DNA of 34,987 nt, from positions 1-34,987 of the forward strand of contig JAJBVW010000084.1 of NCBI GenBank assembly GCA_020866945.1. The letters run 5' to 3'. Shown piece after piece: positions 12,230 to 30,760 of the stretch; the stretch's first letter is position 1, and every line of letters begins with the position of its first letter. This DNA comes from Oscillospiraceae bacterium. GTDB taxonomy: Bacteria > Bacillota > Clostridia > Oscillospirales > Oscillospiraceae. The notes below the pieces were generated by a model that worked only from the letters and a program-made list of their open reading frames with translations, did not search any database and was not told where the DNA came from. The position numbers and the translations under genes were made by a program.

Positions 12230-12258
12230 ATTATAACAAGAGATACCGCATATGTCAA
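12230..12258 (-). promoter_or_regulatory. Perfect-consensus sigma-A promoter for the Y-family polymerase/YolD operon
   Basis: The minus strand reads TTGACA (12258..12253), tatgcggtatctcttgt (17 nt), TATAAT (12235..12230). Confidence 0.7.
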
Positions 12259-12280
12259 CACTTATTCATGAATAAGTGTT
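12257..12280. repeat. 24-bp perfect palindrome (candidate repressor operator)
   Basis: AACACTTATTCATGAATAAGTGTT is its own reverse complement. It abuts or overlaps the -35 of the polymerase promoter and lies about 25 nt upstream of the XRE start codon. Confidence 0.85.
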
Positions 12281-12305
12281 CGTATTTCCAGAAGAAAGGA
12301 TTCTT

Positions 12306-12722
12306 ATGTCGTTCAAAGACAGACTGAAAGAAAAAAGAACAGCGGCGCATATGACGCAGGCGGAGCTTGCGGCCAGGGCCGGCATTACTCCCCGTACCAT
12401 CCAGAATTATGAGCTTGGTACACGAAAGCCTGCCAACATGGAGATTGCCCAAAGGCTTGCGGAATCACTTCAAACAACGACCGAGTATCTGCTGGGCAGC
12501 GCGGGAACCTATGTCGTCGAAGCCCACGAAAAGGGCGGCGCACGCGTGGCGCGGGATATAGACGAGCTTGTAGGCGAGGTCACAGGAATGTTCACCGGCG
12601 GCGAGCTGAGCGAAGACGCGCTGGATGGGGCAATGAAGGCTCTGAACGATGCTTATTGGATTGCCAAGGAAAATAACAAACGATATGCTCCAAAGAAGAC
12701 GCAAAGGACTGCCGCAAAGTAA
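12306..12722 (+). CDS. XRE-family helix-turn-helix transcriptional regulator
   Basis: HTH_3 signature LKEKRTAAHMTQAELAARAGITPRTIQNYELGTRKP. AAAGGA RBS precedes the ATG at 12306. The tracked ORF begins 30 nt earlier. Confidence 0.85.
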   Translation: MSFKDRLKEKRTAAHMTQAELAARAGITPRTIQNYELGTRKPANMEIAQRLAESLQTTTEYLLGSAGTYVVEAHEKGGARVARDIDELVGEVTGMFTGGELSEDALDGAMKALNDAYWIAKENNKRYAPKKTQRTAAK

Positions 12723-12774
12723 CCGGCGTTTGTCATACAGGAACAGAATTATACGTTAGATCAAATCGAGGTGT

Positions 12775-13287
12775 ATGATGAACGCTGAACAATTATCACA
12801 GGTCGGGAACCGGCTGGTGAAGCGCTGCGGTACAAGAGACCCTTTTGAAATTTCCGAGCAGATTGGCATTAACATCATGTTCTGTGAGGACTTCGGGGCC
12901 TTGAAGGGGATGTACCGGGTCATTAAACGCAACCGTTTTATCTTTCTGAACAAGGATTTGGACGAGGATATGCTTCGCATTGTCTGCGCCCACGAGCTTG
13001 GTCACGACCAGCTGCACCGGCAAATGGCAAAGACCCACCCTATCCAGGAGTTTATGCTATATGACATGAAATCGGAGCCGGAGTATGAAGCAAACATTGT
13101 CGCGGCTGAGATTTTGATGGACAACGAGGAAGTGCTGAGCTATATCTTCGATTATGGATATACGGCGGAGCAAATCGCGAGGGCAATGTCCACTGACATC
13201 AACCTGGTGGCATTAAAGGTGGCGCATTTGGCAACGCTTGGGTATCCCCTTCGTCCGCTGGAGCATAAAAGCGATTTTTTGAAATAA
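12775..13287 (+). CDS. ImmA/IrrE-family zinc metallopeptidase (COG2856)
   Basis: HEXXH motif in CAHELGHDQLH, with a downstream E in the EYEAN region. Size and pairing with an upstream XRE gene are typical of ImmR/ImmA and DdrO/IrrE modules. Confidence 0.8.
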   Translation: MMNAEQLSQVGNRLVKRCGTRDPFEISEQIGINIMFCEDFGALKGMYRVIKRNRFIFLNKDLDEDMLRIVCAHELGHDQLHRQMAKTHPIQEFMLYDMKSEPEYEANIVAAEILMDNEEVLSYIFDYGYTAEQIARAMSTDINLVALKVAHLATLGYPLRPLEHKSDFLK

Positions 13288-17305: not shown

Positions 17306-18661
17306 ATGCCGTCCGGAGAGAGAGGGTATTTTTTGTTTACGAAAGCGCAGATAAAGGCCCTGCTCATTCCTTTGGTGATAGAGCAGGTGCTGACAGGGCT
17401 GATGGGCGTCGCGGATACGCTGATGGTCTCCAATGTGGGCGAGGCCGCCATATCCGGCGTGTCCCTGGTAGATGCCATCAACACCCTTGTCGTCTATTTC
17501 TTCTCCGCACTTGGCGCCGGCGGCACCATTGTCTGCGCCCAATATATTGGCCATGAGGAGCTGAACAAGGCAAACCTAGCCTCCCGACAGGTGCTGATTG
17601 CGGCGCTGGGTCTGGCGCTGTTTCTCAGCGTGACCCTGGCGAGCCTGCGCGGGCCAATTCTGCGGCTGATTTTCGGCTCCGTAGAGGCGGACGTTTTGGC
17701 GGCAGCCGATGTATATTTTCTGGTGACTGCCTTGAGCTATCCCTTTTTGGGTCTGTATTCCGTCAGCGCGGCGCTGCACCGGGCCACCGGCAACTCCAAG
17801 CGGCCTATGATTGTGGCAGCCGTGGCGGACGGAGTCAATATCGTCGGCAATGCCATTTTGATTTTTGCCTGCGGGCTGGGTGTGCTCGGCGCGGCGCTGT
17901 CCGCACTGTTCAGCCGCATTTTGTGCTCTGTGGTAATGCTGTATTTCCAAAGCCGCCCCGGGCAGGTCATTACACTGGGCCGGCTTCGGGATTTTCGGCT
18001 GGATGGCGCCATGATGAAGCGCATCATTCGCATCGGTTTGCCCACCGCCGTGGAAAACAGTATGTTCCAATTCGGCAAGCTGGTGGTACAAAGCACCGTG
18101 GCCAGCCTTGGGACAACCGCCATCGCAGCCCAGGCCATCGTCTCTACGCTGGAAAACTTTGGTTCCATGCCGGCCATGGCCATTGGCACCGGCCTTCTCA
18201 CGGTGGTGGGGCAATGCCTTGGGCGGGGCCAGACGGAAGAGGCCAAGCGATATATGACCTACTTCACCAAAATATCCACCGGAGTCATCCTGCTGACCAG
18301 CGTGCTGCTGTCCGTTTCAGTGCCGGTCGTCGTTCGGTTCACTGCGCTCAGCGCCGAAGGCGCGCGGCTTGCCTGCCAGCTGATATGGTTCAGCTCCGTT
18401 TTGAAGGTATTCACCTGGCCCTGCGCCTTCACACTTCCCAACGGTCTTCGAGCCTCCGGGGATGTATCCTATACCATGTGGGTCAGCGGCATCAGTATGT
18501 GGGTATTCCGCGTGGCGTTGAGCTGGTTTTTGTGCCGCGCTACCTCCATCGGCCTCTGGGGCGTGTGGATAGGCTGGTGCGTAGACTGGCTGTTCCGAGA
18601 AATCTGCTTTGTCGCGCGCTATCGCAGCGACAAATGGCTGGGGAAAAAGGTGCTTGAATAG
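17306..18661 (+). CDS. MATE-family efflux transporter
   Basis: About 12 predicted TM segments. MatE signature near the N-terminus (ALLIPLVIEQVLTGLMGVADTLMVS). Alternative TTG start at 17333 with a better RBS (GGAGAGAGAGGG). Confidence 0.85.
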   Translation: MPSGERGYFLFTKAQIKALLIPLVIEQVLTGLMGVADTLMVSNVGEAAISGVSLVDAINTLVVYFFSALGAGGTIVCAQYIGHEELNKANLASRQVLIAALGLALFLSVTLASLRGPILRLIFGSVEADVLAAADVYFLVTALSYPFLGLYSVSAALHRATGNSKRPMIVAAVADGVNIVGNAILIFACGLGVLGAALSALFSRILCSVVMLYFQSRPGQVITLGRLRDFRLDGAMMKRIIRIGLPTAVENSMFQFGKLVVQSTVASLGTTAIAAQAIVSTLENFGSMPAMAIGTGLLTVVGQCLGRGQTEEAKRYMTYFTKISTGVILLTSVLLSVSVPVVVRFTALSAEGARLACQLIWFSSVLKVFTWPCAFTLPNGLRASGDVSYTMWVSGISMWVFRVALSWFLCRATSIGLWGVWIGWCVDWLFREICFVARYRSDKWLGKKVLE

Positions 18662-18684
18662 CTAACATACTGCCAAATAATAAT

Positions 18685-18736
18685 GCTCCCTCCATGCTTG
18701 ACAGCGTTGTTATCGCTGTCTCTCCATGGAGGGAGC
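18685..18736. terminator. Composite hairpin / bidirectional terminator between convergent genes
   Basis: 12-bp outer stem GCTCCCTCCATG...CATGGAGGGAGC enclosing an inner hairpin GACAGCG...CGCTGTC. A/T-rich flanks on both sides. Confidence 0.55.
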
Positions 18737-18779
18737 TATTACATTTTGGGACGTTATTTGCTGCGGAATAGGCTTCTTT

Positions 18780-19112
18780 TTATTCCTGAACCTCTGCGGT
18801 CTCAGGTTCGGCAGGGGATTCCTCGGCGGCAGCCTCAGGGGCGGAAGCCTCGGCGGGCGCGGCCTCATCAAAGACGACCAGGTCGTCCTCGACCTCCTTG
18901 CCGGCGTTTTCGTCGATGTGCAGCACATTCATGGCCTTTTTCTTCGCCTTCCGCCAGGCCACGCCGATGACCGCGCCGGCCACAACCACCACGCCTACAA
19001 CAGCCTGAATCGCAAAGGTCGTGACAGAGGGGTCAACATAGGAGGCGCACGCAGGCACCATCAGCAGCAGGGCAAAGCAGAGCGTGTAAAAGACAGTCCG
19101 AATCGTTTTCAA
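18780..19112 (-). CDS. Small membrane protein with an acidic C-terminal tail
   Basis: N-terminal hydrophobic signal/anchor (FYTLCFALLLMVPACAS), a second TM (FAIQAVVGVVVVAGAVIGVAW) followed by RKAKKK, then an E/A/P-rich tail. Confidence 0.6.
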   Translation of the reverse strand: MKTIRTVFYTLCFALLLMVPACASYVDPSVTTFAIQAVVGVVVVAGAVIGVAWRKAKKKAMNVLHIDENAGKEVEDDLVVFDEAAPAEASAPEAAAEESPAEPETAEVQE

Positions 19113-19227: not shown

Positions 19228-20007
19228 TCAGGTCACATAGGTTTTATCCAGCGCCTTCAGCTCATCCAGCGTATCTATCTCCTGGATGTCTGAAAAGGCA
19301 CAGGGGCGGACGCGGACAGTATAGTGGTCGTGAAAGATATTGAGTGGAACGGCCTCAAAAAACGCCTGACGATTTTCCTCCCGCTGGAAGGCAGCGGGGA
19401 GATCCTCCCCCAGGCGGCGGCCGTCCTCTTCTGACCAGTAGGAGACGCCGAACATATGACAGCAGTCATCCCCGCCCTTTTGGACGCACTGGATAACCCC
19501 GTCCTTTACGGGAAAGCACCAATCGTCCGTGTGAGCCACCGGTACGCCCAGGAAGTTTGAGCTATATTGATATTTGCAGATAAGGCCGGGATTTTGCAGC
19601 AACAGGTCAGCCTCGAACACATAAGCGTTTTGCAGGTACTCCGACGCCTGGAGAATGGAGGAGATGTTATTTGTCTCGTCATAGAGTGGGTTTTCAATGA
19701 ACTGTATCATGGGATACTCTTCCAGCAGCGAATTAAACGCCTCCCCCATATAGCCACGGACGAGATATATCTCCTCTATCCCGGCAGCCAGCACCGCATC
19801 CAGCAGCGACGCTATGATGGGACGTCCGAACACCGGAATCAGGGGCTTGGGAGTCGTCAGCGTCAGCGGCGCGAGACGGCTGCCGAAGCCCGCCGCCATA
19901 AACACAGCCCGCCTGGCGCGGTATGGCTCCAGTGCGGCCAGCTCCGCCGCCGTGGCGATCCCCTGCCGCTCTTTTTCTGCCAGGGCATTAAACTCCTGTT
20001 CCGTCAT
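19228..20007 (-). CDS. licC: LicC-type cytidylyltransferase (phosphocholine or phospho-aminoalcohol)
   Basis: AVFMAAGFGSRLAPLTLTTPKPL (G-x-G-x-R-L nucleotide loop), ETNNISSILQA and a C-terminal IQEIDTLDELKALD, all parallel to S. pneumoniae LicC motifs. The start overlaps the licA stop by 4 nt. Confidence 0.75.
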   Translation of the reverse strand: MTEQEFNALAEKERQGIATAAELAALEPYRARRAVFMAAGFGSRLAPLTLTTPKPLIPVFGRPIIASLLDAVLAAGIEEIYLVRGYMGEAFNSLLEEYPMIQFIENPLYDETNNISSILQASEYLQNAYVFEADLLLQNPGLICKYQYSSNFLGVPVAHTDDWCFPVKDGVIQCVQKGGDDCCHMFGVSYWSEEDGRRLGEDLPAAFQREENRQAFFEAVPLNIFHDHYTVRVRPCAFSDIQEIDTLDELKALDKTYVT

Positions 20008-20912
20008 ACCGTTCCCTCCTGGAAAAGCCGCTCAAGGCTCTCCCTTGCGTATCGGACGCCAAGCTGGGCGTAATCCTGATAAAAAATCCTGTCCTGCGGC
20101 TCCATCTTTGTTTTGAATACCGACCAGGTGCCCCACATGATAGCGGCACTGGCGCACATGGCAAACAGCTTTCTGCGCTCTGCCGATGTGGACGGCCTCT
20201 CTAAATACAGCTCCAGCAAATGAACGCACGCCTCCGCCGGTAAATCTCCATCGTGGCAAAAATCCCCTAAATCCTCCATGGGGTCGCTGATGCTCGCGTA
20301 TTCCCAGTCAATCAGCACAGGCTCCCGTCCATGCGGAAACAGAAAGTTATGGGGCAGACAGTCTCCATGGACAAGCTGGAACTGACTGCCGTCACCATAA
20401 TAGGCCGGGCATACAGACAGCACCCGCTCCCGCACGGGCCAATACTCAGCGGGGTAAAACGACTCTCCCTCCACGTCCTTCACACACTGGATGTAATATT
20501 CCATCCTGTCCAGGGCAGTGTTCTGCCGTTCACCCTTTATTTTCAAGCCATGAAAGCGTCGCAGCAGGGCCATCCCCCGGCGCAGCTCCCCCTCGTCGGC
20601 GGTATTTATCACATGACTTTCTGGGTAATATACCGTCACACGAATGCCGGTGTCCGGCTCAAAGTAGCACACCTCGTCGGTAATATGCTCGTCCTTCAGC
20701 CGAGCATACAGTGCACACTCCGCGCGGCGGTCACAGAACATCTCCGTTCCCCGCCCGGGCAGGCGAAGCATATAGTCCCCCACCGTGGTGCGGAACACAT
20801 AGGTATCGTTTGTGATGCCCCGCCCCGGGTTATTGTACGCCTCCAAAACCTGCTCCTGACGCAGATTCATAGCCCGAAGGAATATTTCCGTTGTCCTCTC
20901 ATCCACTGACAT
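20004..20912 (-). CDS. licA: Choline/ethanolamine-kinase family protein (LicA-like)
   Basis: Brenner motif LVHGDCLPHNFL and choline-kinase motif LIDWEYASISDPMEDLGDF. Confidence 0.75.
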   Translation of the reverse strand: MSVDERTTEIFLRAMNLRQEQVLEAYNNPGRGITNDTYVFRTTVGDYMLRLPGRGTEMFCDRRAECALYARLKDEHITDEVCYFEPDTGIRVTVYYPESHVINTADEGELRRGMALLRRFHGLKIKGERQNTALDRMEYYIQCVKDVEGESFYPAEYWPVRERVLSVCPAYYGDGSQFQLVHGDCLPHNFLFPHGREPVLIDWEYASISDPMEDLGDFCHDGDLPAEACVHLLELYLERPSTSAERRKLFAMCASAAIMWGTWSVFKTKMEPQDRIFYQDYAQLGVRYARESLERLFQEGTV

Positions 20913-20930
20913 AGGCAGCGTTTCCTTATC

Positions 20931-22508
20931 TCATATAAACGCCCGGCGGAAAAGCCGGTTGTGGATGCTGCGGCGAAGAAGTCCCAGCACACCTGGCGTT
21001 TTGCCGTCATATTTTTTCCCGGCAAGATACAGCGCCTGAATCTGAATAGTCCGAATATCAGGTGCGGTCAGTGGGTCATCGCTCAAAACCACAAAGTCCG
21101 CAATCTTTCCTTCCGTCAAGCTGCCCCGTTCATGCTCGTCAAAGCTCATATACGCCGGGTTGTAGGTTATCATTCGCAGCGCATCCAGCCGTTCCATCCT
21201 CGCCTCTGCGTCGGGGTGAGAAACAGCGTTCGCCATGGCTGCCAGAGGATTCGGCATGGTGCATGGGCCGTCCGACCCGTCCCCCATTACCACGCCCCGG
21301 CGCTGGAGCTGTCCCAAGGGATTTAAGGCCCCGGCCCGCTCCGGGCCGAGTATCCTGTCCAAATATTCCTGAGGCTCCTGCTTCCAGAAGATAAAGGGCG
21401 ACTGCACCGCCACGCACAGCTTCAGTCTTGCGATACGGTCAAGCTGCTCAGGTGTGGCCATGCAGCAATGTATCAGCACATGACGGGCATCCTCCCTCGG
21501 ATAATCCGCCATCGCGGCCTCATAGGCTGTGACTGCCTGCTCCACCGCACGGTCTCCAATGGCGTGCATGGCAATCTGCAGACCCATGCGATTCGCCCGA
21601 ATGACAAAGTCGTTTATCTCCTCCTGGCTATAATACAGAACACCGACATTATTGGGGTCATTCGCATAGGGGCTTGTTAGGGCCGCATCCTCCGAACCAA
21701 AGCAGCCATCCAGCGCGAGCTTGAAGCAGCCGCCCACACGGGGGAACTTCCGCTTTTTCACAGCCTCCAAATCCATGGTCTGAAAAAATATGCGGTACGC
21801 CTGGGGCAGACCGGGGGCAAGAATATTTATCATGTCCACATCCAAATCGCCGGTGTAGCCCACACCCTCAACATTATGGACAAGGCCAATCCCCACGTCC
21901 GCCAGCGCCTTCGCCCCTTTGGAAAGGCCCCGCACCACGTCCAGGATAGGTATTTTTGCCGTTACCTCGTTCACGCCCTTATAAAAGGCGTTCTGATACA
22001 GCCAGCCGCTCTCTCCGTCATAGCCGGGGTCGTTTTTCACCTCGTCCGTCAGCAGGGACAGCATGGCGCTGTTGCAAACGGCGGCATGGCCGTCATATTT
22101 CACCACCATAAGAGGCCGGTCTGTCCAGCTGTCCATATCGGCCCGCTCCGGCAGACGCCCCTCCCGAACCGTATGGGCGGAGCAGCCATAGCCCATCAGC
22201 ACCTTGGCCCTGGGATGGGCATCCGCGTAAGCCCGCACGATGGCCGCATCCTCGTCAAAGCTCTCTGCATCCATGAGATAGAAAGTCTGCTGGAAGGTGG
22301 CAAAGGACTCAAAATGGATATGCGTGTCCGCGAAGGCTGGCGTCACCGCCGCCCCCTGAAGGTCAACGACCCTGGCCCTCTGACAGGATGCCGGCAGATT
22401 TTCCGGGCTGCCGACCCATACAATGCGGCCCTTATCCACCGCCATGGCGGAAAAAAATCTGTTTTCCGGCTCGCAGGAAATAAACCTGGCGTTTTTATAT
22501 ACAACCAT
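20931..22508 (-). CDS. Amidohydrolase-family metal-dependent hydrolase (Amidohydro_3 / YtcJ-like)
   Basis: 525 aa. HxH metal motif in FADTHIHF. Later HAIGD and VLIHC histidines and the DG-S-DGP region are typical of the family. Confidence 0.75.
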   Translation of the reverse strand: MVVYKNARFISCEPENRFFSAMAVDKGRIVWVGSPENLPASCQRARVVDLQGAAVTPAFADTHIHFESFATFQQTFYLMDAESFDEDAAIVRAYADAHPRAKVLMGYGCSAHTVREGRLPERADMDSWTDRPLMVVKYDGHAAVCNSAMLSLLTDEVKNDPGYDGESGWLYQNAFYKGVNEVTAKIPILDVVRGLSKGAKALADVGIGLVHNVEGVGYTGDLDVDMINILAPGLPQAYRIFFQTMDLEAVKKRKFPRVGGCFKLALDGCFGSEDAALTSPYANDPNNVGVLYYSQEEINDFVIRANRMGLQIAMHAIGDRAVEQAVTAYEAAMADYPREDARHVLIHCCMATPEQLDRIARLKLCVAVQSPFIFWKQEPQEYLDRILGPERAGALNPLGQLQRRGVVMGDGSDGPCTMPNPLAAMANAVSHPDAEARMERLDALRMITYNPAYMSFDEHERGSLTEGKIADFVVLSDDPLTAPDIRTIQIQALYLAGKKYDGKTPGVLGLLRRSIHNRLFRRAFI

Positions 22509-22548
22509 GCCTGACCCTCCCCCACGGAAATTCCGTCAAAATTAAAAT

Positions 22549-24354
22549 TTACAGTTTTATTTTTTCCAGCGCCTGATACAGCGCCTCATTGTCCGCCTCA
22601 TCCCGGACAGCCACGCGGATGAAATCCGCTCCGCCGAAGCCGTTTTTGGTGGACAGGTCTTTGATAAGCAGATTATCGTCCCGCAGAAGACGGTTTGCAA
22701 GCTCCTTGGAGCCAATGCCCTCCACGCGGCACATAATATAGTTTGCCTGGGACGGATAGGGCGTCAGGAAGGCGTATGCTCCCAGCCGCTCCTCCATTTT
22801 TTCCCGCTGGCGGACGATTTTGTTGCAGGCAGTTCTGTACTCCCCGCTGTAAAGGCCTACAATCTGGAAGAAATATTCTCCAAAGGAGTTGATATTCCAG
22901 ATGGGCAACAGTCCGCGGAGCTGCTCCATCCAGGCCGTATTGCCACTGGCGGCCACGCCCAGACGCAGCCCCGGCACTCCGTAGGATTTGCTGATGCTCT
23001 TAATGACCATCAGGTTCGGATAGGCATCCAAAATATCGTTATCCAGCAGCGTAAAGCGCAGCGGCGCCTCTGCAAAGTCCACAAAGGACTCGTCCACCAC
23101 AAAGGTCGTGCCATGCTCCCGGCAGATGTCGGCCAGCTCCAAAATTTCCTCGCGCTTCAAAAAGCTGCCGCTGGGGTTATCGGGATTGATGATGACAAGA
23201 TTATCCATCTCCGCCGCTGCTTTGCGAAGGGCGGACATATCAAACTGGAAGCCATAGTCTCTGGCCTGGATGGGAACGATCTCGCAGTCCGGGAAGCAGC
23301 GGACATATTCGTTGAAAGCAGGAATAGAAAGGCCCGTCCGGCCCCGCATGGTGCGGCCCAGGGTGTTGATAAGCTCCGCCGCCCCGTTCCCGACCAGGAC
23401 AAGTTCGTCCCGTATGCCGAACATCTTGCCCGCCATCAGCTTTTGCACATACATCCCGGACGGGTAGCTAGTGAGAAGCTGGGAATAGGAATACTGCATC
23501 TGCTCCAGCATTTTCTTCGGAGGAAAATAGGGATTCACCAGATAGCAGAAGTCCTTCAGCCCGTCAAACCGCCAATAGCCGCCGAAGTGCAGTTCGTAAG
23601 CGTGGAGCCTGTCCTCATCTCTGGCAAAAATGGTATTGGCAATGTCCAAATCCTGCACATCGTCTATCTCGTACCATTTCAAATCGCCCATCTTAAAGGC
23701 CCGCAGGCCGGCAAACGGCAGATGGGCCAGGGCTTTCAGCACCATTTCATAATACTGGTTGGCCCCATATGCCTGGAGATAGGACATCATGAACGGCACA
23801 TACTGCCGGGTGGAAAACTCCCGGCTGAATTTATACACGTTCACGGTTTTATAGTAGGTGTCCGCGCTGGCGAAACTGAAATCCTTTTTCTCGATAAACT
23901 CCCGGATAAGGCCGTCTTCGTCCACCAGGGTAACGGTGCCGTCCATCCACTGCTCGTACTTCGCCACGGCCACCATGTTCGGCTCCGGGGCCTCCACCAG
24001 ACGGCGTATCAGGCTGGGGTCATAAATCAGGTCAGATTCCAGCAGGACGGTATCATCCGCCATCAGCTCCTCCCGCGCCAGATACAGAGAATAAATATTA
24101 TTCGTGGTGGCATAGTCCGGGTTTTCCACAAAGACAAGGTCAAAGTCGCTGAGCTTTTCCCGGGCAAAGGCTTTTAGCTTTTCCCCCTCATAACCCACCA
24201 CAATGACAAAACGCCGGATGCCCGCCTGGCGCAGGGCCTCCGCCGCGTGCTCCAGGAGAGTATAGCCCCCCACCTTCACCATGCACTTGGTCTGGTTGTT
24301 CGTATAGGCCCCCAGGCGCTTTCCCATCCCGGCAGCCAGCATCAATGCCTGCAT
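22549..24354 (-). CDS. Fusion protein: N-terminal LicC-type cytidylyltransferase plus C-terminal class I/II PLP enzyme (HisC/CobD-like aminotransferase or decarboxylase)
   Basis: The first ~250 aa carry MLAAGMGKRL, TNNIYSLYLAREEL and WYEIDDVQDLDIA, close parallels to LicC. The C-terminal ~350 aa carry NPDNPSG, DESFVDF and the PLP-lysine motif SISKSYGVPGLRLG. Confidence 0.8.
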   Translation of the reverse strand: MQALMLAAGMGKRLGAYTNNQTKCMVKVGGYTLLEHAAEALRQAGIRRFVIVVGYEGEKLKAFAREKLSDFDLVFVENPDYATTNNIYSLYLAREELMADDTVLLESDLIYDPSLIRRLVEAPEPNMVAVAKYEQWMDGTVTLVDEDGLIREFIEKKDFSFASADTYYKTVNVYKFSREFSTRQYVPFMMSYLQAYGANQYYEMVLKALAHLPFAGLRAFKMGDLKWYEIDDVQDLDIANTIFARDEDRLHAYELHFGGYWRFDGLKDFCYLVNPYFPPKKMLEQMQYSYSQLLTSYPSGMYVQKLMAGKMFGIRDELVLVGNGAAELINTLGRTMRGRTGLSIPAFNEYVRCFPDCEIVPIQARDYGFQFDMSALRKAAAEMDNLVIINPDNPSGSFLKREEILELADICREHGTTFVVDESFVDFAEAPLRFTLLDNDILDAYPNLMVIKSISKSYGVPGLRLGVAASGNTAWMEQLRGLLPIWNINSFGEYFFQIVGLYSGEYRTACNKIVRQREKMEERLGAYAFLTPYPSQANYIMCRVEGIGSKELANRLLRDDNLLIKDLSTKNGFGGADFIRVAVRDEADNEALYQALEKIKL

Positions 24355-24365
24355 AGCAAATCCTC

Positions 24366-25163
24366 TCAGTCCTCTCGAATCAACCGGGCGTACAGGCCCA
24401 AAAAGTCGTAGCCCATCTTGTGATGCAGGGACAGGGTGTTCTCGTTATCAGCGCCTAAATAGGCAAGCCCCCGCTTTCCCTCCGTCAGCACCAGATTCCA
24501 GGTGCTTGCAGTAATGGCCCGGCCCAGGCCGTGTCCGCGCATTTCCGTGTCCGTCACAAGACCGCTGATAACGGCAAGCTCCTCCGTCTCCGCGCTGGTG
24601 GCGTTGGTGGCTACCAGCCGTCCCCCCGGCTCCCGCATGACGAATAGACGGCCAAAGCCGCTGTCAATGCGATTTTCCAACTGCTCGCACAGGCTCTCAT
24701 AGGTGTACACGGAGTTGTAGATAGGCTCCTTCATCATCAGCCGGGCAATCTCCGGCACGTCCGCCTTGCCCGCCTGCTGGACGGACAGATCGGATTTCCC
24801 GTCCATCAGCTTGTCCGTGGTGATAATGTGGCTCAGCTCATAGGCGTATGTATCCTTCGTCTTTCCCTTCAATGGGTCGATGCTCCGCTGCTCCCCTGTA
24901 ACGCACTTGGGGTGCAGCTGCTCAATCATGGCCAGCGCCTCCCGCTGGGGAAACACGTCCCGGCTGTAAAGGTGCAGGGTGTCAAAATAGCGGTACATGA
25001 CTCCGTCTATCCGATCGCCCTCCCCGCACATCCAAAGGCCCACATCCGGCCCCTGGGCGCCGTATTCCTTCATGTCCATATACAGGTAAAAGCACTTGTA
25101 CTTATCCTCGCCAATGTAGTCTATCACCTGTGGGATATATGAGTTATCACATTGAATCATCAT
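24366..25163 (-). CDS. GNAT-family N-acetyltransferase
   Basis: Acetyl-CoA motif A region VISGLVTDTEMRGHGLGRAI. Start set at MMIQCDN, 4 nt after the upstream stop. The tracked ORF would overlap the upstream gene by 155 nt. Confidence 0.65.
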   Translation of the reverse strand: MMIQCDNSYIPQVIDYIGEDKYKCFYLYMDMKEYGAQGPDVGLWMCGEGDRIDGVMYRYFDTLHLYSRDVFPQREALAMIEQLHPKCVTGEQRSIDPLKGKTKDTYAYELSHIITTDKLMDGKSDLSVQQAGKADVPEIARLMMKEPIYNSVYTYESLCEQLENRIDSGFGRLFVMREPGGRLVATNATSAETEELAVISGLVTDTEMRGHGLGRAITASTWNLVLTEGKRGLAYLGADNENTLSLHHKMGYDFLGLYARLIRED

Positions 25164-25167
25164 CGCT

Positions 25168-27069
25168 TTATTTCCCGTTTTGTCCGTCCTTTGCCTTTTT
25201 TTGATTTTCCACCATGCGGCCGATGAGATAATCTGCCGCATATTTTCCGCTCTCGCCGAAGTGATATAGCTTCTCCCGCCGGACAGCCTCCAGCGTTTCC
25301 GCGTAGGCAGCCCGGTTTTCAATCATATCCAGCGCCGCAGCCGCCGCCTTTTCCCGCACTTCATCCAGCTCCAGCGCCGCGCCCATCACTGCCCGGAGCT
25401 TCGCGTCCGGGGCACAGCGGGCAATGTCCTCGTCCATCCAGGCCTCATTGACCCGCTTCATGGGAGTATTAATGTAAAGCACCGGCTTTTTGGTCGCCAG
25501 AGCGTATTCACAGCCAATGTTTGACCAGTCGGTCACCAGAATATCCGAGGAGAACACTGTCTCGTTGGAGCTGAAATTGAGCTGGAAACGGAAGCGTTCC
25601 TTGTCGTACCCCTCACAGTCGTGAATGAGCTTTTCAAGCCGCTGGGGGAAGCGGCGGATATACTGCGGATGGGGCCGGACGGTCACGTCAAAGCCCGCCG
25701 CCAGCAGCGGCTCCGCCAAATCCGCAAGGCAGCTGTCCAGGATATTATCCGCCTGCCAGGAGGGGGCGATAAGCACCGTTTTCACAGGATTTTCATGCTT
25801 TTCCATACGGTCATATTCCGCCGCCATGTTATCAATGACGCCATAGCCGCAGGGTATCATTTTCTGGTTCGGCAGGCCCATTTTTTCGTTCCAGCCGCGC
25901 ATCTCCACCTCGAAGCCAGGAGTGGGCGTCAGCAGGGTATCAAAATGGTCAAGCGCTCCCTTCCGCAGCGTCACCAGGCCGGAGAATATGCCGTGGAACA
26001 TATAAACGTATTCCACGTCCTTGCGCACATAGCTGCGCTTAAAGTGGTAGGTGTCCAGATCCGGCATGGTCATTACCACGATGTCCGCGTCCATCTTCAT
26101 AAACAGGGTAATCATCCGCCGCTCGCCAATATAATAGGGCTGAATGCGCGGTTCCTTTTCCGCAAGGGCGAAGATCTGGTCGTCCGGGTCGCTGGTGACG
26201 TAGTTTATCACCACGTTTGTCTGGGCCAGCAGCTCCTCGATGGTATTCTGAAAATACTTATAAAATCCGCTGGCCTCGGAATAGAACACCAGCCGCTTGT
26301 TGGCCACATGGAAAAAGTGCTTGTAATCTGCTTTTTCCCGCTTTTTCAGCTCCTTGGTCTGTGTCTGGCCGAACTGATCCAGCGCCTCCAGCTCCTTCCG
26401 GCTGGCCTCCAGCGCCTCATAGTCCACATACTTTTTCGGCGGCATGATGGCGTTGCAGGCAAGCTGCACCAGGATGGAAAAGAGATTGCTGTATATCCAG
26501 TACAGCGCCACGCCGGTGGAAACAAACACACCCAGCACCAGCGAAATGCCCACAGACACCCCATTTGAGGAGAGCTGCTCGGCTTTACTCTGCTCCCGCT
26601 GAAGGGGATTGATGTAGTTTTGCGCGAAGCTCAGCACCACTGCCGCAAGTCCAGCGCCTAATGGCATGAGCCACGTCCAGCCCCCATCCGTCATCGGGAT
26701 AAGGCCCAGGGCCGGGGCCGCGCCGGTGTCCGTTACCGAATGGATGACGCCAATCATCCCCAAAAGGATGATGATTTGAATAATCAGCGGGATAGTGCTC
26801 AGCAGGGGCCGGTAATGCTTTTCCTTATACAAAGCCGCCTGCTCGTCGCCTATCTTCTCCCGGTCGCCGTAATACTGCACCTTGATGCGGTTCAGCTCCG
26901 GCATCAGGGCCACCATTTTCAGCCCGTTGCGGTTCGTCCACAGGGAAACGGGCATGAGAATGATTTTAGTGAGCAGTGTAAACAGGGCGATAGCCACCAC
27001 GTAATTCGGCACGATGGCATAGCACAGATCCATCACATAGCCGAATATTTTTGCCAGAAAGTCTATCAT
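25168..27069 (-). CDS. Fusion protein: N-terminal YidC/Oxa1-type membrane insertase domain plus C-terminal CDP-glycerol glycerophosphotransferase (TagB/TagF, Glyphos_transf) domain
   Basis: The first ~215 aa match the YidC core: AIALFTLLTKIILMPVSLW, LMPELNRIKVQYYGDREKIGDEQAALYKEKHYRPL, LIIQIIILLG and ALYWIYSNLFSILVQ. The C-terminal ~380 aa match TagF: VLIAPSWQ, VRPHPQ and ILVTDWSNIGCEYALATKKPVLYI. Confidence 0.8.
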   Translation of the reverse strand: MIDFLAKIFGYVMDLCYAIVPNYVVAIALFTLLTKIILMPVSLWTNRNGLKMVALMPELNRIKVQYYGDREKIGDEQAALYKEKHYRPLLSTIPLIIQIIILLGMIGVIHSVTDTGAAPALGLIPMTDGGWTWLMPLGAGLAAVVLSFAQNYINPLQREQSKAEQLSSNGVSVGISLVLGVFVSTGVALYWIYSNLFSILVQLACNAIMPPKKYVDYEALEASRKELEALDQFGQTQTKELKKREKADYKHFFHVANKRLVFYSEASGFYKYFQNTIEELLAQTNVVINYVTSDPDDQIFALAEKEPRIQPYYIGERRMITLFMKMDADIVVMTMPDLDTYHFKRSYVRKDVEYVYMFHGIFSGLVTLRKGALDHFDTLLTPTPGFEVEMRGWNEKMGLPNQKMIPCGYGVIDNMAAEYDRMEKHENPVKTVLIAPSWQADNILDSCLADLAEPLLAAGFDVTVRPHPQYIRRFPQRLEKLIHDCEGYDKERFRFQLNFSSNETVFSSDILVTDWSNIGCEYALATKKPVLYINTPMKRVNEAWMDEDIARCAPDAKLRAVMGAALELDEVREKAAAAALDMIENRAAYAETLEAVRREKLYHFGESGKYAADYLIGRMVENQKKAKDGQNGK

Positions 27070-27096
27070 TTCTTACTCTCTCAGCCTCCTGCCGTA

Positions 27097-28866
27097 TCAA
27101 TAGAAGGAGTCGTACAGCGGCTCGATAGCGTCGGCCACGCCGTACAGGTACCAGTAGCGTTCTTCCTCATAAATGGTGTCCCGGTCGCCGATATAGTTGA
27201 ACACGCCGAACACGTTATAGCGGTAGGAGCCGTTGGCCTGGGCGTCCCACTGGTTCAGGTTGCCAACCCAGTCCACATCGGGATAGGACTTCATATAGCC
27301 CCAAACGCGGGTCGTCCGCTCCCGGACGTCTCCCTCCTCCCAGTCAAAGACTGTGGTGCCGTAGTCGCTGTAATCCTCACCCAGGGCATAAAGGATAGTG
27401 GGCATAATGTCTTCCTGGGCCACGGGAGCGCTTGTGACCTGCATTTCCTCAAACTCCTGGCCGGGCATCTTGATAAGAAATGCCGCCTGGAAGCACTCAA
27501 AATAGCCATGGTCGGCGGAGATGATGATGGTGGCATCATCATAGATGCCCTGCTCCTTCATCTGCTCCAAGAACTCGCCGACAGCCAGCAGATAACCGTG
27601 GAGCTGGCTCATGCGGTCGGTTTCATCCTCGTCGCACAAATAGCCATCATAATCCACTACATAGGGGAAATGCGCGCCCTGAAGGTGATACCAGCTGAAT
27701 ATCTTGGTGTCATCCGTCAGACTGATGCGCTCCTCCTGAAGCTCGGTATAGAAGTCATAGTTAATGTGCAGCTTTTCCACGCCCTGATATTCCGCCACGT
27801 CCACGATGCCGCCGGTGGAGACATAGAAGTCATTTTTCAGCATGGTGGGCAGATAGCGGTACAGGGACATATACACCACATTTTCCAGCAGCTCCCCCGT
27901 CACCACAAGGTCGCCGGCCACAGCGATATTGTCCACCTTGCCCAGCATATTCTCCGTGTCAATCGCGGCGTAGTTGGACTCAAGATAGAGATTTACCGTA
28001 TAGCCATTGTCGTGGAGCGTGTCATAGAAGTTATTTGCCAGGTCGCTGTGCCAGGCGTTATACACCGTCTCCACAGTGGGAATAGTTGTGTCAAAATACT
28101 CATGGGTCAGCAGATAGCACAGGGACGGGAAGGTGAAAGAGTAGCAGGAGGACATATTATCGTAGTAGATAAAGTCCTGGAAAAACTCCGCCAGCGTGGG
28201 ATCCTCCTCCAGCGCCTCCTCAAAAATCAGGGGGGAGAACTGGTCAAGGGTAATAACGATGATGTTCTCATCCGAGGATAGCACAAACTCATCATCCCCC
28301 GCGAGCTGATAGTTGATGGCGTCCGGATCCTCCGCCTGCCAGGTAGTCACCAGACTGACAGCCTGGGCCAGCACCAGCGCGGCACAGAGAATATAACCCG
28401 CCGTGCGGTATGCGCCATGCAAAAACCATCCGGCTATCACAATGACCACCAGGGCCACAGCCCACACGGCAATGTTTATATACGCGGCTTGGGCATCATC
28501 ATGCCAATCGAAGCCAGAGCCATCCAGTACCGCCAGCTCGCCGTTCAGCAGAACGCCCTGGAGATAGAACAGCACAGCAACGCCCAGCAGAAGGGCATAA
28601 ACAATGCGCTGGGCCTTACCGGGAACAAAGGCCAGCACAGCGGACAGAAGCGCCGTCGCTCCGACCGTTACCCCAGCCAAAGACCAGAACAACGTTCCCG
28701 CCGAAAAAGTCAGATATGCCTGGTTTGAGTTTACAATGTCCAGCGGGCCAAAGAACAACCCGGTAAAGCACAGCAAAAAGGCCGGTGCCAGCAGCCCCAG
28801 AAATCGGTGGAGCCAATTTTTCCAGTAGTCTTTGCCAGACACAGCCTTCGTCTTATGTTCTTCCAT
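27097..28866 (-). CDS. LtaS/sulfatase-superfamily membrane ectoenzyme (phospho-alcohol transferase-like)
   Basis: Five N-terminal TM segments, then an alkaline-phosphatase-fold domain with IIVITLDQFSP (metal/nucleophile region) and IIISADHGY. Start set at MEEHKTK (28866), with AGGAGG upstream. Confidence 0.75.
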   Translation of the reverse strand: MEEHKTKAVSGKDYWKNWLHRFLGLLAPAFLLCFTGLFFGPLDIVNSNQAYLTFSAGTLFWSLAGVTVGATALLSAVLAFVPGKAQRIVYALLLGVAVLFYLQGVLLNGELAVLDGSGFDWHDDAQAAYINIAVWAVALVVIVIAGWFLHGAYRTAGYILCAALVLAQAVSLVTTWQAEDPDAINYQLAGDDEFVLSSDENIIVITLDQFSPLIFEEALEEDPTLAEFFQDFIYYDNMSSCYSFTFPSLCYLLTHEYFDTTIPTVETVYNAWHSDLANNFYDTLHDNGYTVNLYLESNYAAIDTENMLGKVDNIAVAGDLVVTGELLENVVYMSLYRYLPTMLKNDFYVSTGGIVDVAEYQGVEKLHINYDFYTELQEERISLTDDTKIFSWYHLQGAHFPYVVDYDGYLCDEDETDRMSQLHGYLLAVGEFLEQMKEQGIYDDATIIISADHGYFECFQAAFLIKMPGQEFEEMQVTSAPVAQEDIMPTILYALGEDYSDYGTTVFDWEEGDVRERTTRVWGYMKSYPDVDWVGNLNQWDAQANGSYRYNVFGVFNYIGDRDTIYEEERYWYLYGVADAIEPLYDSFY

Positions 28867-29064
28867 GGTTATAAGGGTTCCTCCTAAGATACGGGATTTG
28901 GGGGGTGAAAGTCTTAAGCGTCTTTCACACACAAGCAAAGGTTTACGGACAGCCTGCATATTAACAATTATTTAATAAATAATAACACTTATTTTACAGG
29001 ATTACAACAGGAATCCGCAATCTGTTACAAAAAAAACTGTATATCTACCTTAACAAAGTGCCTA

Positions 29065-29133: not shown

Positions 29134-30189
29134 ATGGAAACTTTAGCTTCCCCTGCGCCCGCCGCCACCGCAAAAAAGCGCTGGTACCGGGCCGATAACA
29201 TCCGCTGGATTCTGCTGTTTAACGTCATTGCGGAGCATATGCTGACCCAGACGGATATTACTTACAACTGGCTAATCACCGTAATCGTCTGCTGGTCGCG
29301 CATGATCACCATGCCCGCATTCTGCTTTTTATCCGGGTATTTCTCCAAAAAAGGGGATAAATGCTATCAGAGCGCCATCTTTGACTTCCTCATCCCCTAT
29401 CTTATCTTCAACTCCATTTTTGCCCTGATATTCGGCTCCTCCGCAGCAGACATCTTCACGCCCACCTTTGTGTATTGGTATCTGCTGAGTATGTTCTGCT
29501 GGAAGCTGATGACCAAGGCGCTGCAGCAGATAAAATATATTCTACCTCTATCCATCGCTGTGGCTCTGTTGGTAGGCGGACTGAATGATATAGGCCATTT
29601 CCTGAGCCTGAGCCGCACCATCGGCTTCCTTCCCTTCTATATCGTCGGCATGAAGATGAGCCGCGAGGATGTTGCCAAGGTGGAAAAGCTCCCCAAAATT
29701 CCCGTTCTGCTTATCACTCTGGCCGTCATGGGTGTCTGGGGCTGGCTAAATGTAAAGGGCGTGTATCACATCGACTTCTATTATTACTGGGAGCCTTATG
29801 CCGGTGTGGCCGGCGATCCCCTGAGTATGTTCTCCTATAGCTTTTTGAAGGGCATCATCCTGCGTGCGCTTGGCTATGTCATCTCCGGGCTGCTGATTGT
29901 GTTCCTGTTCTGCTTCGTGCCGGACAGGTCTCTCCCCATCATCCGGGACGGCGGCACCCGCACCATGGTTCCCTATCTGCTGCATACCTATTTCATCATG
30001 AACATGGGGTATCTCTACAGCTTTGTCCCCGCTCTGGATCACTGGTATTTCACCATCCCCATCGCCGTGGTCATGGCTGTGTTCCTCCTCTGGCTCCTTG
30101 GCCTGCCCGCGCTGGATCAGCTGTATAAGGATTTGATGAGCTTCATCAAAAAGCTGCTTTACAAGGAGCCGGACATGCCAAAGGCATAG
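29134..30189 (+). CDS. Acyltransferase family 3 integral membrane O-acyltransferase
   Basis: About 10 TM segments. N-terminal R..DNIRWILLFNVIAEH signature of Acyl_transf_3. GAAGGAG RBS before the ATG at 29134. Confidence 0.75.
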   Translation: METLASPAPAATAKKRWYRADNIRWILLFNVIAEHMLTQTDITYNWLITVIVCWSRMITMPAFCFLSGYFSKKGDKCYQSAIFDFLIPYLIFNSIFALIFGSSAADIFTPTFVYWYLLSMFCWKLMTKALQQIKYILPLSIAVALLVGGLNDIGHFLSLSRTIGFLPFYIVGMKMSREDVAKVEKLPKIPVLLITLAVMGVWGWLNVKGVYHIDFYYYWEPYAGVAGDPLSMFSYSFLKGIILRALGYVISGLLIVFLFCFVPDRSLPIIRDGGTRTMVPYLLHTYFIMNMGYLYSFVPALDHWYFTIPIAVVMAVFLLWLLGLPALDQLYKDLMSFIKKLLYKEPDMPKA

Positions 30190-30246: not shown

Positions 30247-30287
30247 CATTCTCTGCCGTATTTATATTTCCAGGAGAAAACGCAAGT

Positions 30288-30322
30288 AAAAAGCCTGTGA
30301 TTACTGAAATCACAGGCTTTTT
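30288..30322. terminator. Bidirectional intrinsic terminator (serves tRNA-Ala on the minus strand)
   Basis: AAGCCTGTGATT / loop / AATCACAGGCTT, with an A-run on the 5' side and a T-run on the 3' side. Confidence 0.75.
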
Positions 30323-30325
30323 ACT

Positions 30326-30401
30326 TGGTGGAGACGAAGGGATTCGAACCCTCGACCTCTCGGATGCGAACCGAACGCTCTCCCAGCTGAGCTACGCCCC
30401 C
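30326..30401 (-). tRNA. tRNA-Ala (anticodon CGC)
   Basis: The reverse complement is GGGGGCGTAGCTCAGCTGGGAGAGCGTTCGGTTCGCATCCGAGAGGTCGAGGGTTCGAATCCCTTCGTCTCCACCA, 76 nt. It folds as a cloverleaf with a G3:U70 Ala identity pair, anticodon loop TTCGCAT, a T-loop GGTTCGAATCC and an encoded CCA. Confidence 0.9.
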
Positions 30402-30480: not shown

Positions 30481-30760
30481 GCTCTGGAGCTGTACTAGTC
30501 GGGGAGCCAGCGGTGCCCTGTACCCGCAATCCGCTATAGCGGGGACGAACTCCTGCCCCCGGATATTCGATGTGTTGCCTGCCCGCAGCAAGTAGCGTTG
30601 ATGGCTCGGTCTTGCGCAACGGGAACCCGTGAACCATGTCAGGCGGGGAACCGAGCAGCATTAAGCGGGGCCTCCCGTGTGCCGTGAGGTCGCCGGGTCT
30701 GAGCCAACTACTGCGGTAACGGATGTGTCGAGTATACAAAGGCAGGTGTGCAGCTCTTTT
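30481..30760 (+). ncRNA. ffs: Signal recognition particle RNA, long Bacillus-type (scRNA with Alu domain)
   Basis: Long stretches parallel B. subtilis scRNA: GGGGAGCCAGCGGTGCCCTGTACCCGCAATCCGCTATAGCGGGG (Alu domain), GCGCAACGGGAACCCGTGAACCATGTCAGGCGGGGAACCGAGCAGCATTAAGCGG (domain IV) and GTGCCGTGAGG. The 5' GAGCTGTAC pairs with the 3' GTGTGCAGCTC. T-run at 30757..30760. Its position directly upstream of dnaX is the canonical Firmicute synteny. Ends are approximate. Confidence 0.9.

Follow-up and report, generated by a model that had tools for sequence, protein, structure and literature searches.

Phosphocholine, phosphoethanolamine and aminoethylphosphonate (AEP) carried at the bacterial surface shape its charge, its resistance to antimicrobial peptides and its recognition by the host. 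In the Lic pathway of Streptococcus pneumoniae, a kinase (LicA) and a cytidylyltransferase (LicC) produce a cytidine diphosphate (CDP)-activated zwitterion destined for an envelope polymer. LtaS and EptA/MCR-1 are phosphotransferases, and LtaS and EptA draw on phosphatidylglycerol and phosphatidylethanolamine, respectively, as donors. In the phosphonate tailoring clusters to which the PntC-AEP transaminase fusion Tde1415 of Treponema denticola belongs, the downstream transferases are LicD-like or unknown, and the steps that follow nucleotidyl activation have been called 'enigmatic' (Rice et al. 2019, PMC6697681). Here we consider a locus from an Oscillospiraceae bacterium (assembly GCA_020866945.1), contained in positions 1 to 34,987 of contig JAJBVW010000084.1, the whole of which we refer to as the window. 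Its conserved unit, composed of an ectoenzyme, a fusion of YidC and TagF domains and a microprotein, is a candidate machine for placing head groups of this kind on the cell envelope. The genes of the locus are as follows.

g1, 27097-28866, minus strand: alkaline phosphatase (AP)-superfamily ectoenzyme (Pfam Sulfatase and Phosphodiest)
g2, 25168-27069, minus strand: YidC-TagF fusion (Pfam 60KD_IMP and Glyphos_transf)
g3, 24366-25163, minus strand: two-domain GNAT-type acyltransferase (Pfam FR47 and Acetyltransf_1)
g4, 22549-24354, minus strand: LicC-type nucleotidyltransferase joined to a CobD-like pyridoxal phosphate (PLP) enzyme (NTP_transf_3 and PLP domain)
g5, 20931-22508, minus strand: cytoplasmic Amidohydro_3 metal hydrolase (Pfam, 214 bits)
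g6, 20004-20912, minus strand: LicA-type kinase of the choline/ethanolamine family (Pfam APH and Choline_kinase)
g7, 19228-20007, minus strand: LicC-type cytidylyltransferase (PDB LicC, 1jyk)
Microprotein gene, 18780-19112, minus strand: 110 amino acids (aa), TTG start with a GAAGGA ribosome-binding site
g8, 29134-30189, plus strand: divergent Acyl_transf_3 membrane O-acyltransferase

The original prediction for this locus had placed eight genes on the minus strand. Seven of the genes that it listed do lie there, but the eighth is the divergent acyltransferase gene of the plus strand, and the list was incomplete, as the minus-strand microprotein gene had been overlooked. The domain assignments of g1-g8 were upheld by Pfam, NCBIfam and PDB searches.

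We compared 42 related loci (L001-L042), 36 of which come from a scan of one genome per species and contain a YidC-TagF fusion, and located homologs of the proteins encoded in the window, along with those of a set of head-group enzymes, in the fusion loci. A g1-type AP-superfamily gene is present in 33 of the 36, usually adjoining the fusion gene, and the microprotein motif in 35 of the 36, mostly directly downstream of it. Starting from the microprotein, all three contexts (L037, L038 and L040) contain the YidC fusion, and starting from distant g1 homologs (27-31% identity), both contexts (L041 and L042) contain the fusion together with the microprotein. The conserved unit is the AP ectoenzyme, the YidC-TagF fusion and the microprotein; the eight listed genes do not stay together in this neighbourhood comparison, g5-g7 being absent from six close relatives. 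The fusion profile, searched against 1.84 billion cluster representatives (clusters at 50% identity), retrieved 801 of them at E<=1e-30, including fragments and unfused TagF-type relatives, and the best 120 matches of the first fusion search are nearly all proteins of ~630 aa with both Pfam domains. Carriers of the fusion locus include the cultured strains Eubacterium coprostanoligenes ATCC 51222 and Clostridium aminobutyricum DSM 2634, and metagenome-assembled genomes (MAGs) of Lentisphaeria and Victivallales, so that the Lentisphaerota are covered, as well as one Eggerthellaceae MAG.

The three core members are also found joined to one another. Single polypeptides of the orders Sulfatase-YidC-TagF and YidC-TagF-Sulfatase, predicted from metagenomes, are among the best profile matches, and both orders are topologically consistent. 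Four YidC-TagF-AP proteins hold a microprotein module, with an intact A-x-A site followed by Y-x-D-P-S, between their TagF and AP parts. In L033 and L035, a module reading A-x-A followed by Y-I-D-P-A-T-T forms the N-terminus of each AP paralog, and in L041 both AP paralogs have a microprotein gene of their own in front of them, the two copies being nearly identical. The adjacency of the three genes and the fusions among all three point to a core that acts as a single machine.

Around this core the gene content varies. Homologs of g3 and g4 are confined to the close Oscillospiraceae relatives (L001-L010), apart from a g4 homolog in L037, and in all ten of these relatives the operon ends with the microprotein gene. 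The slot between g4 and the microprotein gene is empty in L005-L007, holds g5-g7 in the window, L001, L004 and L009, and holds a gene for a 1072-aa protein in L002, L003 and L010; g5-g7 are absent from L002, L003, L005-L007 and L010. As g5-g7 are present or absent in one and the same slot, they form an optional cassette inside the operon and are not part of the fixed unit. The 1072-aa protein (14766-17984 in L002) is unannotated, with a faint Peptidase_M14 match only. In L001 (7865-9438) the g5 match falls into two overlapping pieces, a sign that this copy has a frameshift (from pseudogene decay or from an assembly error), whereas g5 is intact in the window.

In the Eggerthellaceae locus L013 (6991-10007), a transporter of the EamA (LicB) family lies upstream of the fusion, the HG motif of which reads HH, and no AP gene or microprotein was found on the remaining 1.7 kb of the contig; this locus may be a divergent or decaying variant. 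In L011 (contig DALTWF010000025.1), a complete core with AP enzyme, YidC-TagF fusion, class V aminotransferase, nucleotidyltransferase and microprotein is found on a contig binned as the archaeon Methanocorpusculum, reflecting either binning contamination or horizontal transfer.

In the AlphaFold2 model of g1 (predicted local distance difference test, pLDDT, 89), six long helices make up the N-terminal part and an alpha/beta domain comes after them; the top Foldseek matches of the model are PbgA/YejM, MCR-1, EptA and LtaS/LtaP. The protein is thus predicted to combine a domain of helices in the membrane with a catalytic domain of AP fold outside the cytoplasm, an architecture like that of LtaS, EptA and PbgA. 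Residues D208, T245, H399, D452 and H453 are invariant in 29 homologs, and by motif we place T300 and D475/H476 of LtaS among their counterparts. This set reads as the signature of a phosphotransferase with a Thr nucleophile and not as that of a formylglycine sulfatase. The sulfatase motif C/S-x-P-x-R is absent; in its place stands an invariant T-F-P-S, which has a Thr and lacks the Arg. In our own reading its Thr stands at the place of the sulfatase Cys/Ser, and g1 is therefore probably no formylglycine sulfatase. The enzyme had been called LtaS-type, a description that fits its architecture but not its family: it scores 23.3 bits with the LtaS equivalog model NF053595, against a cut-off of 970, and LtaS and LtaP of the PDB match it in sequence searches at E ~0.01 only. 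We therefore rejected its identification as LtaS proper on the equivalog score.

In g2, a YidC/Oxa1 domain (~residues 1-210) is followed by a GT-B domain of TagF type (~residues 255-600), and the AlphaFold2 model has a pLDDT of 88. The first domain matches PF02096 (60KD_IMP) with 103.5 bits (cut-off 35) and TIGR03592 (yidC_oxa1_cterm) with 92.1 bits (cut-off 84.3), the A1 profile matches Escherichia coli YidC at E 3e-16, and Foldseek aligns 212 columns with YidC 6al2 at a root-mean-square deviation of 3.7. Residue K35 of g2 aligns without gaps with R366 of E. coli YidC and is conserved in at least 90% of homologs, as Lys and not Arg. The domain thus has the traits by which an insertase is recognised: its core comprises five helices and a cytoplasmic hairpin, and the first of the core transmembrane (TM) helices bears a positive charge. 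The C-terminus of the YidC core is cytoplasmic, and the TagF domain therefore faces the CDP-activated donors.

The TagF-type domain matches PF04464 (Glyphos_transf) with 28.1 bits (cut-off 22.1) over profile positions 159-291 of 367. Most g2 homologs carry a precomputed PF04464 match, and scores as high as 52 bits (positions 12-292) are reached by fused relatives. By fold the domain is GT-B, and the TagF-like capsule polymerases 8qoy and 8a0m are among its top Foldseek matches. Invariant among g2 homologs are H359-G360, A435-P-S-W-Q439, R465-P-H-P-Q469 and T513-D-W-S516; only the TDWS block aligns to a solved member (LISDYSS of TarL, E 0.37). We take the TagF-family motifs to be HG, PTW-R, HP and TDYSS, and the catalytic His of g2 is placed by presumption on this unproven mapping. 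Many proteins of ~380-400 aa match only the TagF half of the fusion profile (positions ~243-620, E ~1e-70), and unfused relatives of this TagF subfamily therefore exist.

The third core member consists of a signal peptide, the sequence S-Y-V-D-P-S-V-T-T at the predicted A-x-A cleavage site, one TM helix, the stretch WRKAKKK and an acidic tail. Its family comprises 2144 matches at E<=0.001, and the 120 best listed of these carry no Pfam domain or informative name. Direct scans of the window microprotein and of five relatives likewise yielded no significant match in Pfam or NCBIfam. In all 120 best listed members Y-x-D-P is found at the predicted signal-peptidase site, a downstream Q is likewise invariant, and position -1 of the cleavage site is Ala in 118. 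We define these proteins as a new microprotein family, in which the Tyr is invariant. The Ser of Y-x-D-P-S is replaced by Ala in L031, L033, L035 and L041 and is for that reason an unlikely modification site. The acidic C-terminal tail had suggested a translational sensor of YidC similar to MifM; we set this idea aside, as the gene lies downstream of the fusion gene and the tail is missing from the L041 microproteins. A lipoprotein was rejected as well, there being no lipobox Cys. Neither by homology nor by the C-terminal FXYXXF motif is the protein of DltX type; its own motif is the N-terminal Y-x-D-P.

Among the supply enzymes, the PLP domain of g4 scores best with the CobD model TIGR01140 (180 bits, under its cut-off of 290.55; hisC 130). 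Residues 266-599 have as best PDB match 6oux ("Thr phosphate decarboxylase-like"), followed by CobD 1lc5, and the N-terminus of g4 matches LicC 1jyk. The Lys of its SISK motif, which we take to be the PLP lysine, aligns with a Lys in 6oux. The domain is probably an O-phospho-Ser/Thr decarboxylase, and we lean somewhat towards this activity over that of an aminotransferase (dihydroxyacetone phosphate to serinol phosphate). Because O-phospho-L-serine is a normal central metabolite, g4 could make CDP-ethanolamine by itself, in keeping with the relatives in which there is no kinase at all; if a Thr kinase took part, CDP-aminopropanol would be formed. An amino-alcohol phosphate beyond or instead of phosphocholine, as had been proposed, is thus likely in view of the CobD-like PLP domain of g4 and its similarity to Ser/Thr-phosphate decarboxylases. 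We rejected a PntC-AEP transaminase of the Tde1415 type: the PLP domain is of class I/II (Aminotran_1_2) and CobD-like, the window is without ppm and ppd, and 6pd1 is not among the PDB matches of g4 at 1e-10. A HisC-like aminotransferase as encoded in L039 is less likely, g4 being 21% identical to the L039 enzyme, which scores 234 with hisC against 149 with CobD.

The cassette g5-g7 would add a second amino alcohol, for which g6 and g7 form a predicted LicA/LicC-type pair. The kinase g6 matches PDB 3dxq (choline/ethanolamine kinase family) and LicA 4r77 at 68-72 bits over nearly its full length, and residues 33-254 of g7 match residues 27-247 of LicC 1jyk at 69 bits, beyond an N-terminal extension of 30 aa. 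Extensions are also found on other core-adjacent LicC-type enzymes, namely an HTH_24-like segment in L024 (12095-12991, minus strand) and ~70 aa in the LicC-LicA fusions of L031 and L033. The amidohydrolase g5, with only the uncharacterized 3icj and 3igh as PDB matches, may set the alcohol free from a precursor amide. The gene g3 follows g2 throughout L001-L010, including L008, which is without g4; that its product modifies the amine of the head group is a guess. The Acyl_transf_3 match of g8 is weak (32 bits, cut-off 31), and the gene is kept beside g1 in L001, L002 and L006-L010 at 57-97% identity, making it a possible co-tailoring enzyme.

Across the fusion loci, the following enzymes and modules stand beside the core.

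LicC-CobD (g4 type): window and close relatives; in L037 as a nucleotidyltransferase-CobD fusion with an OCD/mu-crystallin enzyme
LicC-LicA fusions: L031, L033
Phosphoenolpyruvate (PEP) mutase-cytidylyltransferase fusion with phosphonopyruvate decarboxylase, iron-containing alcohol dehydrogenase (Fe-ADH) and PntC-like nucleotidyltransferase: L016, L017, L023, L041
PEP mutase (Ppm), phosphonopyruvate decarboxylase (Ppd) and a Tde1415-type PntC-class V aminotransferase fusion: L012
Class V aminotransferase with nucleotidyltransferase: L011
Fusion of a TagD-like glycerol-3-phosphate cytidylyltransferase with a GFO/IDH/MocA oxidoreductase, plus aminotransferase: L039, L040 and, more distantly, L033
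S-adenosylmethionine (SAM) methyltransferase: L038
EamA transporter: L013

Most of the predicted products of these modules are amine-bearing phospho or phosphono groups; the phosphonate type with Fe-ADH may give hydroxyethylphosphonate (HEP) instead, and the module of TagD-like enzyme, oxidoreductase and aminotransferase would fit a serinol-type head group. The proposal that nucleotide-activated head groups are probably used by the TagF-type domain gains support from this comparison, as the fusion occurs elsewhere beside LicC-LicA, PntC/PEP-mutase phosphonate and TagD-type modules. Such a context argues for CDP-amino alcohols and cytidine monophosphate (CMP)-phosphonates as donors over CDP-glycerol or CDP-ribitol. 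Several loci are flanked by GT1, GT2, epimerase, Bac_transf and LCP genes, and these glycan genes would fit a glycopolymer as acceptor.

We favour, with a probability of roughly 0.55, a system of exchangeable modules by which zwitterionic phospho-head groups, activated with a nucleotide, are attached to a glycopolymer or a glycolipid of the envelope outside the cytoplasm. Gene content, the three-part core, its fusions and the interchangeable supply rest on sequence comparison and structure prediction; every chemical step, the acceptor and the membrane crossing we infer. In the window the head groups would probably be phosphoethanolamine or aminopropanol phosphate, plus a choline-like amino alcohol. 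Decarboxylation of O-phospho-L-serine or O-phospho-threonine by g4 would give phosphoethanolamine or aminopropanol phosphate and then the CDP-amino alcohol, and the g5-g7 cassette would provide the second head group, from amino alcohol to phospho-alcohol to CDP-alcohol. The GNAT protein g3 and the acyltransferase g8 could tailor the head group or the acceptor. The TagF domain would move the phospho-group (phospho-X) from CDP-X or a CMP-phosphonate to a membrane-bound hydroxyl of the inner leaflet, most simply that of a lipid or glycolipid. The hydrophilic groove of the YidC domain could then let the charged head group reach the outer leaflet; a study that included YidC has reported that protein insertases in general scramble lipids (bioRxiv 10.1101/2023.09.01.555937). 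On the outer face, g1 would, together with the microprotein, take over phospho-X via Thr245 and place it on the final acceptor, and two invariant residues of the microprotein, its Tyr and Asp, would sit where the membrane meets the outside and either recognise the shared amine or carry the group themselves.

Several observations weigh against this reading. The modest, partial PF04464 match of 28 bits and the GT-B fold are the whole basis of the TagF assignment, and the likeness to solved TagF-family enzymes is weak (TarL against g2, E 0.028 by profile and 0.37 by single sequence). The YidC domain retains every signature of an insertase, and its role may simply be the insertion of g1 or of the microprotein, or the anchoring of the TagF domain; the presence of a procoat-like microprotein in the same operon hints at such an insertase role, in a suggestive way only. 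The CobD score of g4 lies under the TIGR01140 cut-off, and g4 may be either a decarboxylase or an aminotransferase. In about 16 of the 36 loci, which belong mostly to the 'Eubacterium' clade, no module could be recognised within 10 kb. Finally, some of the metagenome-predicted fusions could be artefacts of gene calling, against which their number and their two independent orders argue.

The microprotein could also have a more direct part than the one proposed above. It would then work as a shuttle like DltX: TagF would load phospho-X on the invariant Tyr at the N-terminus of the microprotein, a short acidic tail lying in the YidC groove; this N-terminal tail would then emerge outside, and Thr245 of the AP enzyme would take over the group and pass it on to the acceptor with no lipid intermediate. 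We consider this unlikely, though it accounts for a good deal of the pattern. The Y-x-D-P motif is unchanging at the predicted signal-peptidase site of the best listed members while the Ser varies, the invariant Asp could pair with K35 of the groove, and the microprotein is paired one-to-one with the AP enzyme, fused to it, or set between TagF and AP. Its architecture, moreover, resembles that of procoat and Pf3 coat, the classical YidC-only substrates, and as a shuttle it would itself be a client of the groove. A precedent is DltX, a microprotein that carries D-Ala on an invariant extracellular Tyr and the motif of which is fused to the partner enzyme in related systems (PMC12148441). Once the signal peptide is cleaved, however, the Tyr would lie outside and the TagF active site inside, so that repeated re-entry of the tail would be needed. 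We know of no YidC that works reversibly in this manner, and the acceptor groups known to us for the TagF family are hydroxyls of sugars or glycerol on lipid-linked molecules rather than proteins; with C. difficile flagellin (CD0244), too, it is a sugar that is modified. That a YidC-family domain has been recruited to a small-molecule relay, as a protein-borne counterpart of D-alanylation without lipid carrier or flippase, is accordingly an idea we hold only tentatively; if true, the Tyr relay would be the missing transfer step for surface phosphonates. More doubtful still is a synthase of a lipoteichoic acid-like polymer, with g1 as an LtaS-type polymerase, g2 priming it or supplying a special lipid donor, and the microprotein as anchor or primer. 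The architecture and catalytic residues of g1 do resemble LtaS and LtaP, tandem AP paralogs in L035 (four copies), L036, L031, L008 and L041 recall LtaP/LtaS primase/synthase pairs, an LCP gene adjoins L041, and glycosyltransferase (GT) genes flank L028, L038 and L040. Yet g1 reaches only 23 bits of the 970 asked by the LtaS equivalog model, and most of the associated head groups (choline, ethanolamine, aminopropanol, AEP and HEP) have no free hydroxyl for extension, so polymerisation is not the general function.

It is improbable, to a greater degree than the polymer synthase, that the locus makes unusual amino-phospho(no)lipids or phospho-X-glycolipids as end products, with YidC equilibrating the leaflets and the AP enzyme remodelling or recycling them. 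The TagF domain is tethered to the membrane, as such a pathway would have it, and phosphoethanolamine-modified glycosyl diradylglycerols are known in clostridia. A genomic survey also classed Selenomonas clusters of Ppm with multiple sulfatases as 'phosphonolipid' groups (PMC8942020), and these clusters may contain the same core. Were the lipid the end product, however, it would be hard to explain why there is a transferase outside the cytoplasm that has invariant catalytic residues and a microprotein of its own as partner, and several loci are flanked by polysaccharide genes. We give least credence of all to an ordinary Lic phosphocholine teichoic acid locus with licB, licD and tacF elsewhere in the genome, in which g1, g2 and the microprotein would be unrelated neighbours (a spare YidC, a sulfatase). 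It would agree with the LicA- and LicC-like nature of g6 and g7, and the search for licB, licD and tacF covered the window only. Against it, the three core genes are adjacent across phyla, are all fused to one another and are repeatedly paired with non-choline modules; g5-g7 are embedded between core genes; and the Thr of g1 at the sulfatase Cys/Ser position makes a formylglycine sulfatase improbable. The modular attachment system thus remains the reading we prefer, and the view that the locus does not resemble a textbook teichoic acid locus holds.

The arrangement of the genes is compatible with a single transcription unit. The intergenic distances of 27, 4, 11, 40 and 18 nt, with one overlap of 4 nt, are exactly those that had been reported, and the microprotein gene begins 115 nt 3' of g7. 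The open reading frame (ORF) of g1 extends to 28959; we set the start at the ATG at 28866 because homologs have ~589 aa and AGGAGG precedes this codon, the alternative ATG at 28959 having no ribosome-binding site. For g3 the start is the ATG at 25163, 4 nt past the g2 stop, while the mechanical ORF opens earlier at a TTG, and g8 probably starts at the ATG at 29134, for which there is a GAAGGAG ribosome-binding site. Two signals bound the unit.

28979-29007, minus strand: promoter-like site upstream of g1 (TTGTAA, 17 nt, TATTAT, with TG; a consensus match only)
18672-18737, minus strand: likely intrinsic terminator, a hairpin followed by a U-rich tract (RNA fold)

The hairpin region (18662-18782, minus strand) folds with a free energy of -45.7 kcal/mol (z = -7.1), a value reached by none of 200 shuffled sequences, and the hairpin after the microprotein gene is the only strong terminator-like structure of the cluster; within the operon, a terminator scan gave hits no more frequently than in shuffled sequence. 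The proposal of one transcript is therefore plausible, given the promoter-like site 5' of g1, the tight gaps and the sole strong hairpin after the last gene. Most simply the unit would run from g1 through the microprotein gene, from ~28970 to ~18680. A weaker promoter-like site that precedes the microprotein gene speaks against a single unit. No riboswitch or leader of Rfam was matched upstream of g1.

The window is ~99% identical at the protein level to an Oscillospiraceae MAG contig (L001), and the flanks of the operon are of housekeeping type (PcrA, MatE, tRNA, SRP RNA and dnaX). A tRNA gene (30329-30401, minus strand) is followed by a perfect 20-bp hairpin (30283-30327), and the signal recognition particle (SRP) RNA gene (30490-30753, plus strand) lies directly upstream of dnaX; with these three genes nearby, the operon is therefore in a housekeeping neighbourhood. 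The operon terminator faces the convergent MatE gene (17306-18661), the only MOP-superfamily member of the window. We considered this gene as the missing flippase and rejected it: it encodes a typical MatE protein and is convergent, the few other loci with a MatE gene have weakly similar ones (25-27% identity) at varying positions, and we judged its presence to be due to chance.

Further away, two overlapping ORFs of 1325 aa and 187 aa (2605-7106, minus strand) both match BcrAD_BadFG, the longer one also DUF2229, and appear to be pieces of a single CoA-enzyme activase gene of ~1500 aa that was interrupted by a frameshift or through an error of assembly. At 7125-9946 on the minus strand, ~9 kb from the operon, two GT8 glycosyltransferase genes and an LPLAT-type acyltransferase gene lie in a row; their products could be makers of a glycolipid or polysaccharide acceptor. 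Genes for a Y-family (ImpB/MucB) polymerase and an IrrE/M78 peptidase (10529-13287) lie in a stretch of lower GC content (0.49-0.56) that may be the remnant of a mobile element or an SOS cassette.

Our literature search on the YidC-TagF fusion, on CDP-ethanolamine and serine-phosphate decarboxylase in teichoic acids and on Lic genes in Clostridia, in which subscription journals were thinly covered, returned no account of this system. The supply side is known in kind (Lic, CobD, PntC); what appears to be new, as we found no description of it, is the combination of the TagF, LtaS/EptA and YidC families for transfer, and a new translocation mechanism is a real possibility. The comparison points to one widespread, uncharacterized machine beside all these supply pathways in gut Clostridia, Lentisphaerota and others, and its core offers a concrete candidate for the steps of transfer and translocation that have been missing; a possible non-canonical role is suggested for the YidC domain. 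As two cultured strains carry the core, these hypotheses are directly testable.

Compared with the S. pneumoniae pathway, the closest solved relatives of g6 and g7 include LicA and LicC, and a kinase and a cytidylyltransferase would again supply a CDP-zwitterion to an envelope polymer. Of the four functions of the Lic1 set, however, the window ORFs that were scanned contain only the LicA-like g6 and the LicC-like g7: no EamA/LicB or LicD family match and no polysaccharide flippase such as TacF was found among them, as had been predicted. Transfer is here assigned to the YidC-fused TagF domain, the AP enzyme and the microprotein, and g4 adds a decarboxylase-based supply route. With TagF/TarF/TarL, Cps3D and Bcs3, g2 shares a PF04464 match above the cut-off, the GT-B fold, a cytoplasmic position at the membrane and, presumably, the transfer of a phospho-alcohol from a CDP-alcohol to a hydroxyl. 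Unlike TagF/TarF/TarL, it is fused to YidC, has very low similarity to solved members, stands in an amino-alcohol or phosphonate context and is without a TagGH-type ABC exporter.

As in LtaS/LtaP, EptA/MCR-1 and PbgA, a polytopic N-terminal domain precedes an AP-fold ectodomain in g1, with an invariant Thr, metal ligands (D, T, D-H) and His. By contrast with LtaS, EptA and PbgA, g1 fails the LtaS equivalog model, has no EptA_B_N domain and has an obligate partner microprotein that is sometimes fused to its N-terminus, and its donor, unlike that of LtaS and EptA, would come from a dedicated TagF-type enzyme and not from bulk phospholipid. Tde1415 is similar to g4 in that a LicC-like nucleotidyltransferase is fused to an amine-making PLP enzyme, and its class V type is found beside the same core in L012; the PLP domain of g4 is of class I/II and CobD-like, whereas 6pd1 is annotated as class V, and the window is without the ppm and ppd genes. 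The O-phospho-Thr/Ser decarboxylases CobD and SMUL_1544 provide the best NCBIfam and PDB matches of g4 residues 266-599, but g4 is fused to a cytidylyltransferase, lies in an envelope locus with no cobamide genes nearby and scores below the equivalog cut-off. The Dlt system, lastly, is likewise a relay of several components: a group that alters charge is passed from an activated donor in the cytoplasm to a polymer outside the cell, with the help of a single-pass microprotein bearing an extracellular invariant Tyr. It uses MBOAT and SGNH proteins and acyl transfer, with the Tyr C-terminal in DltX, whereas YidC-TagF and AP proteins, phosphoryl transfer and an N-terminal Tyr are proposed here, so that the parallel would be one of functional analogy only, with no homology.

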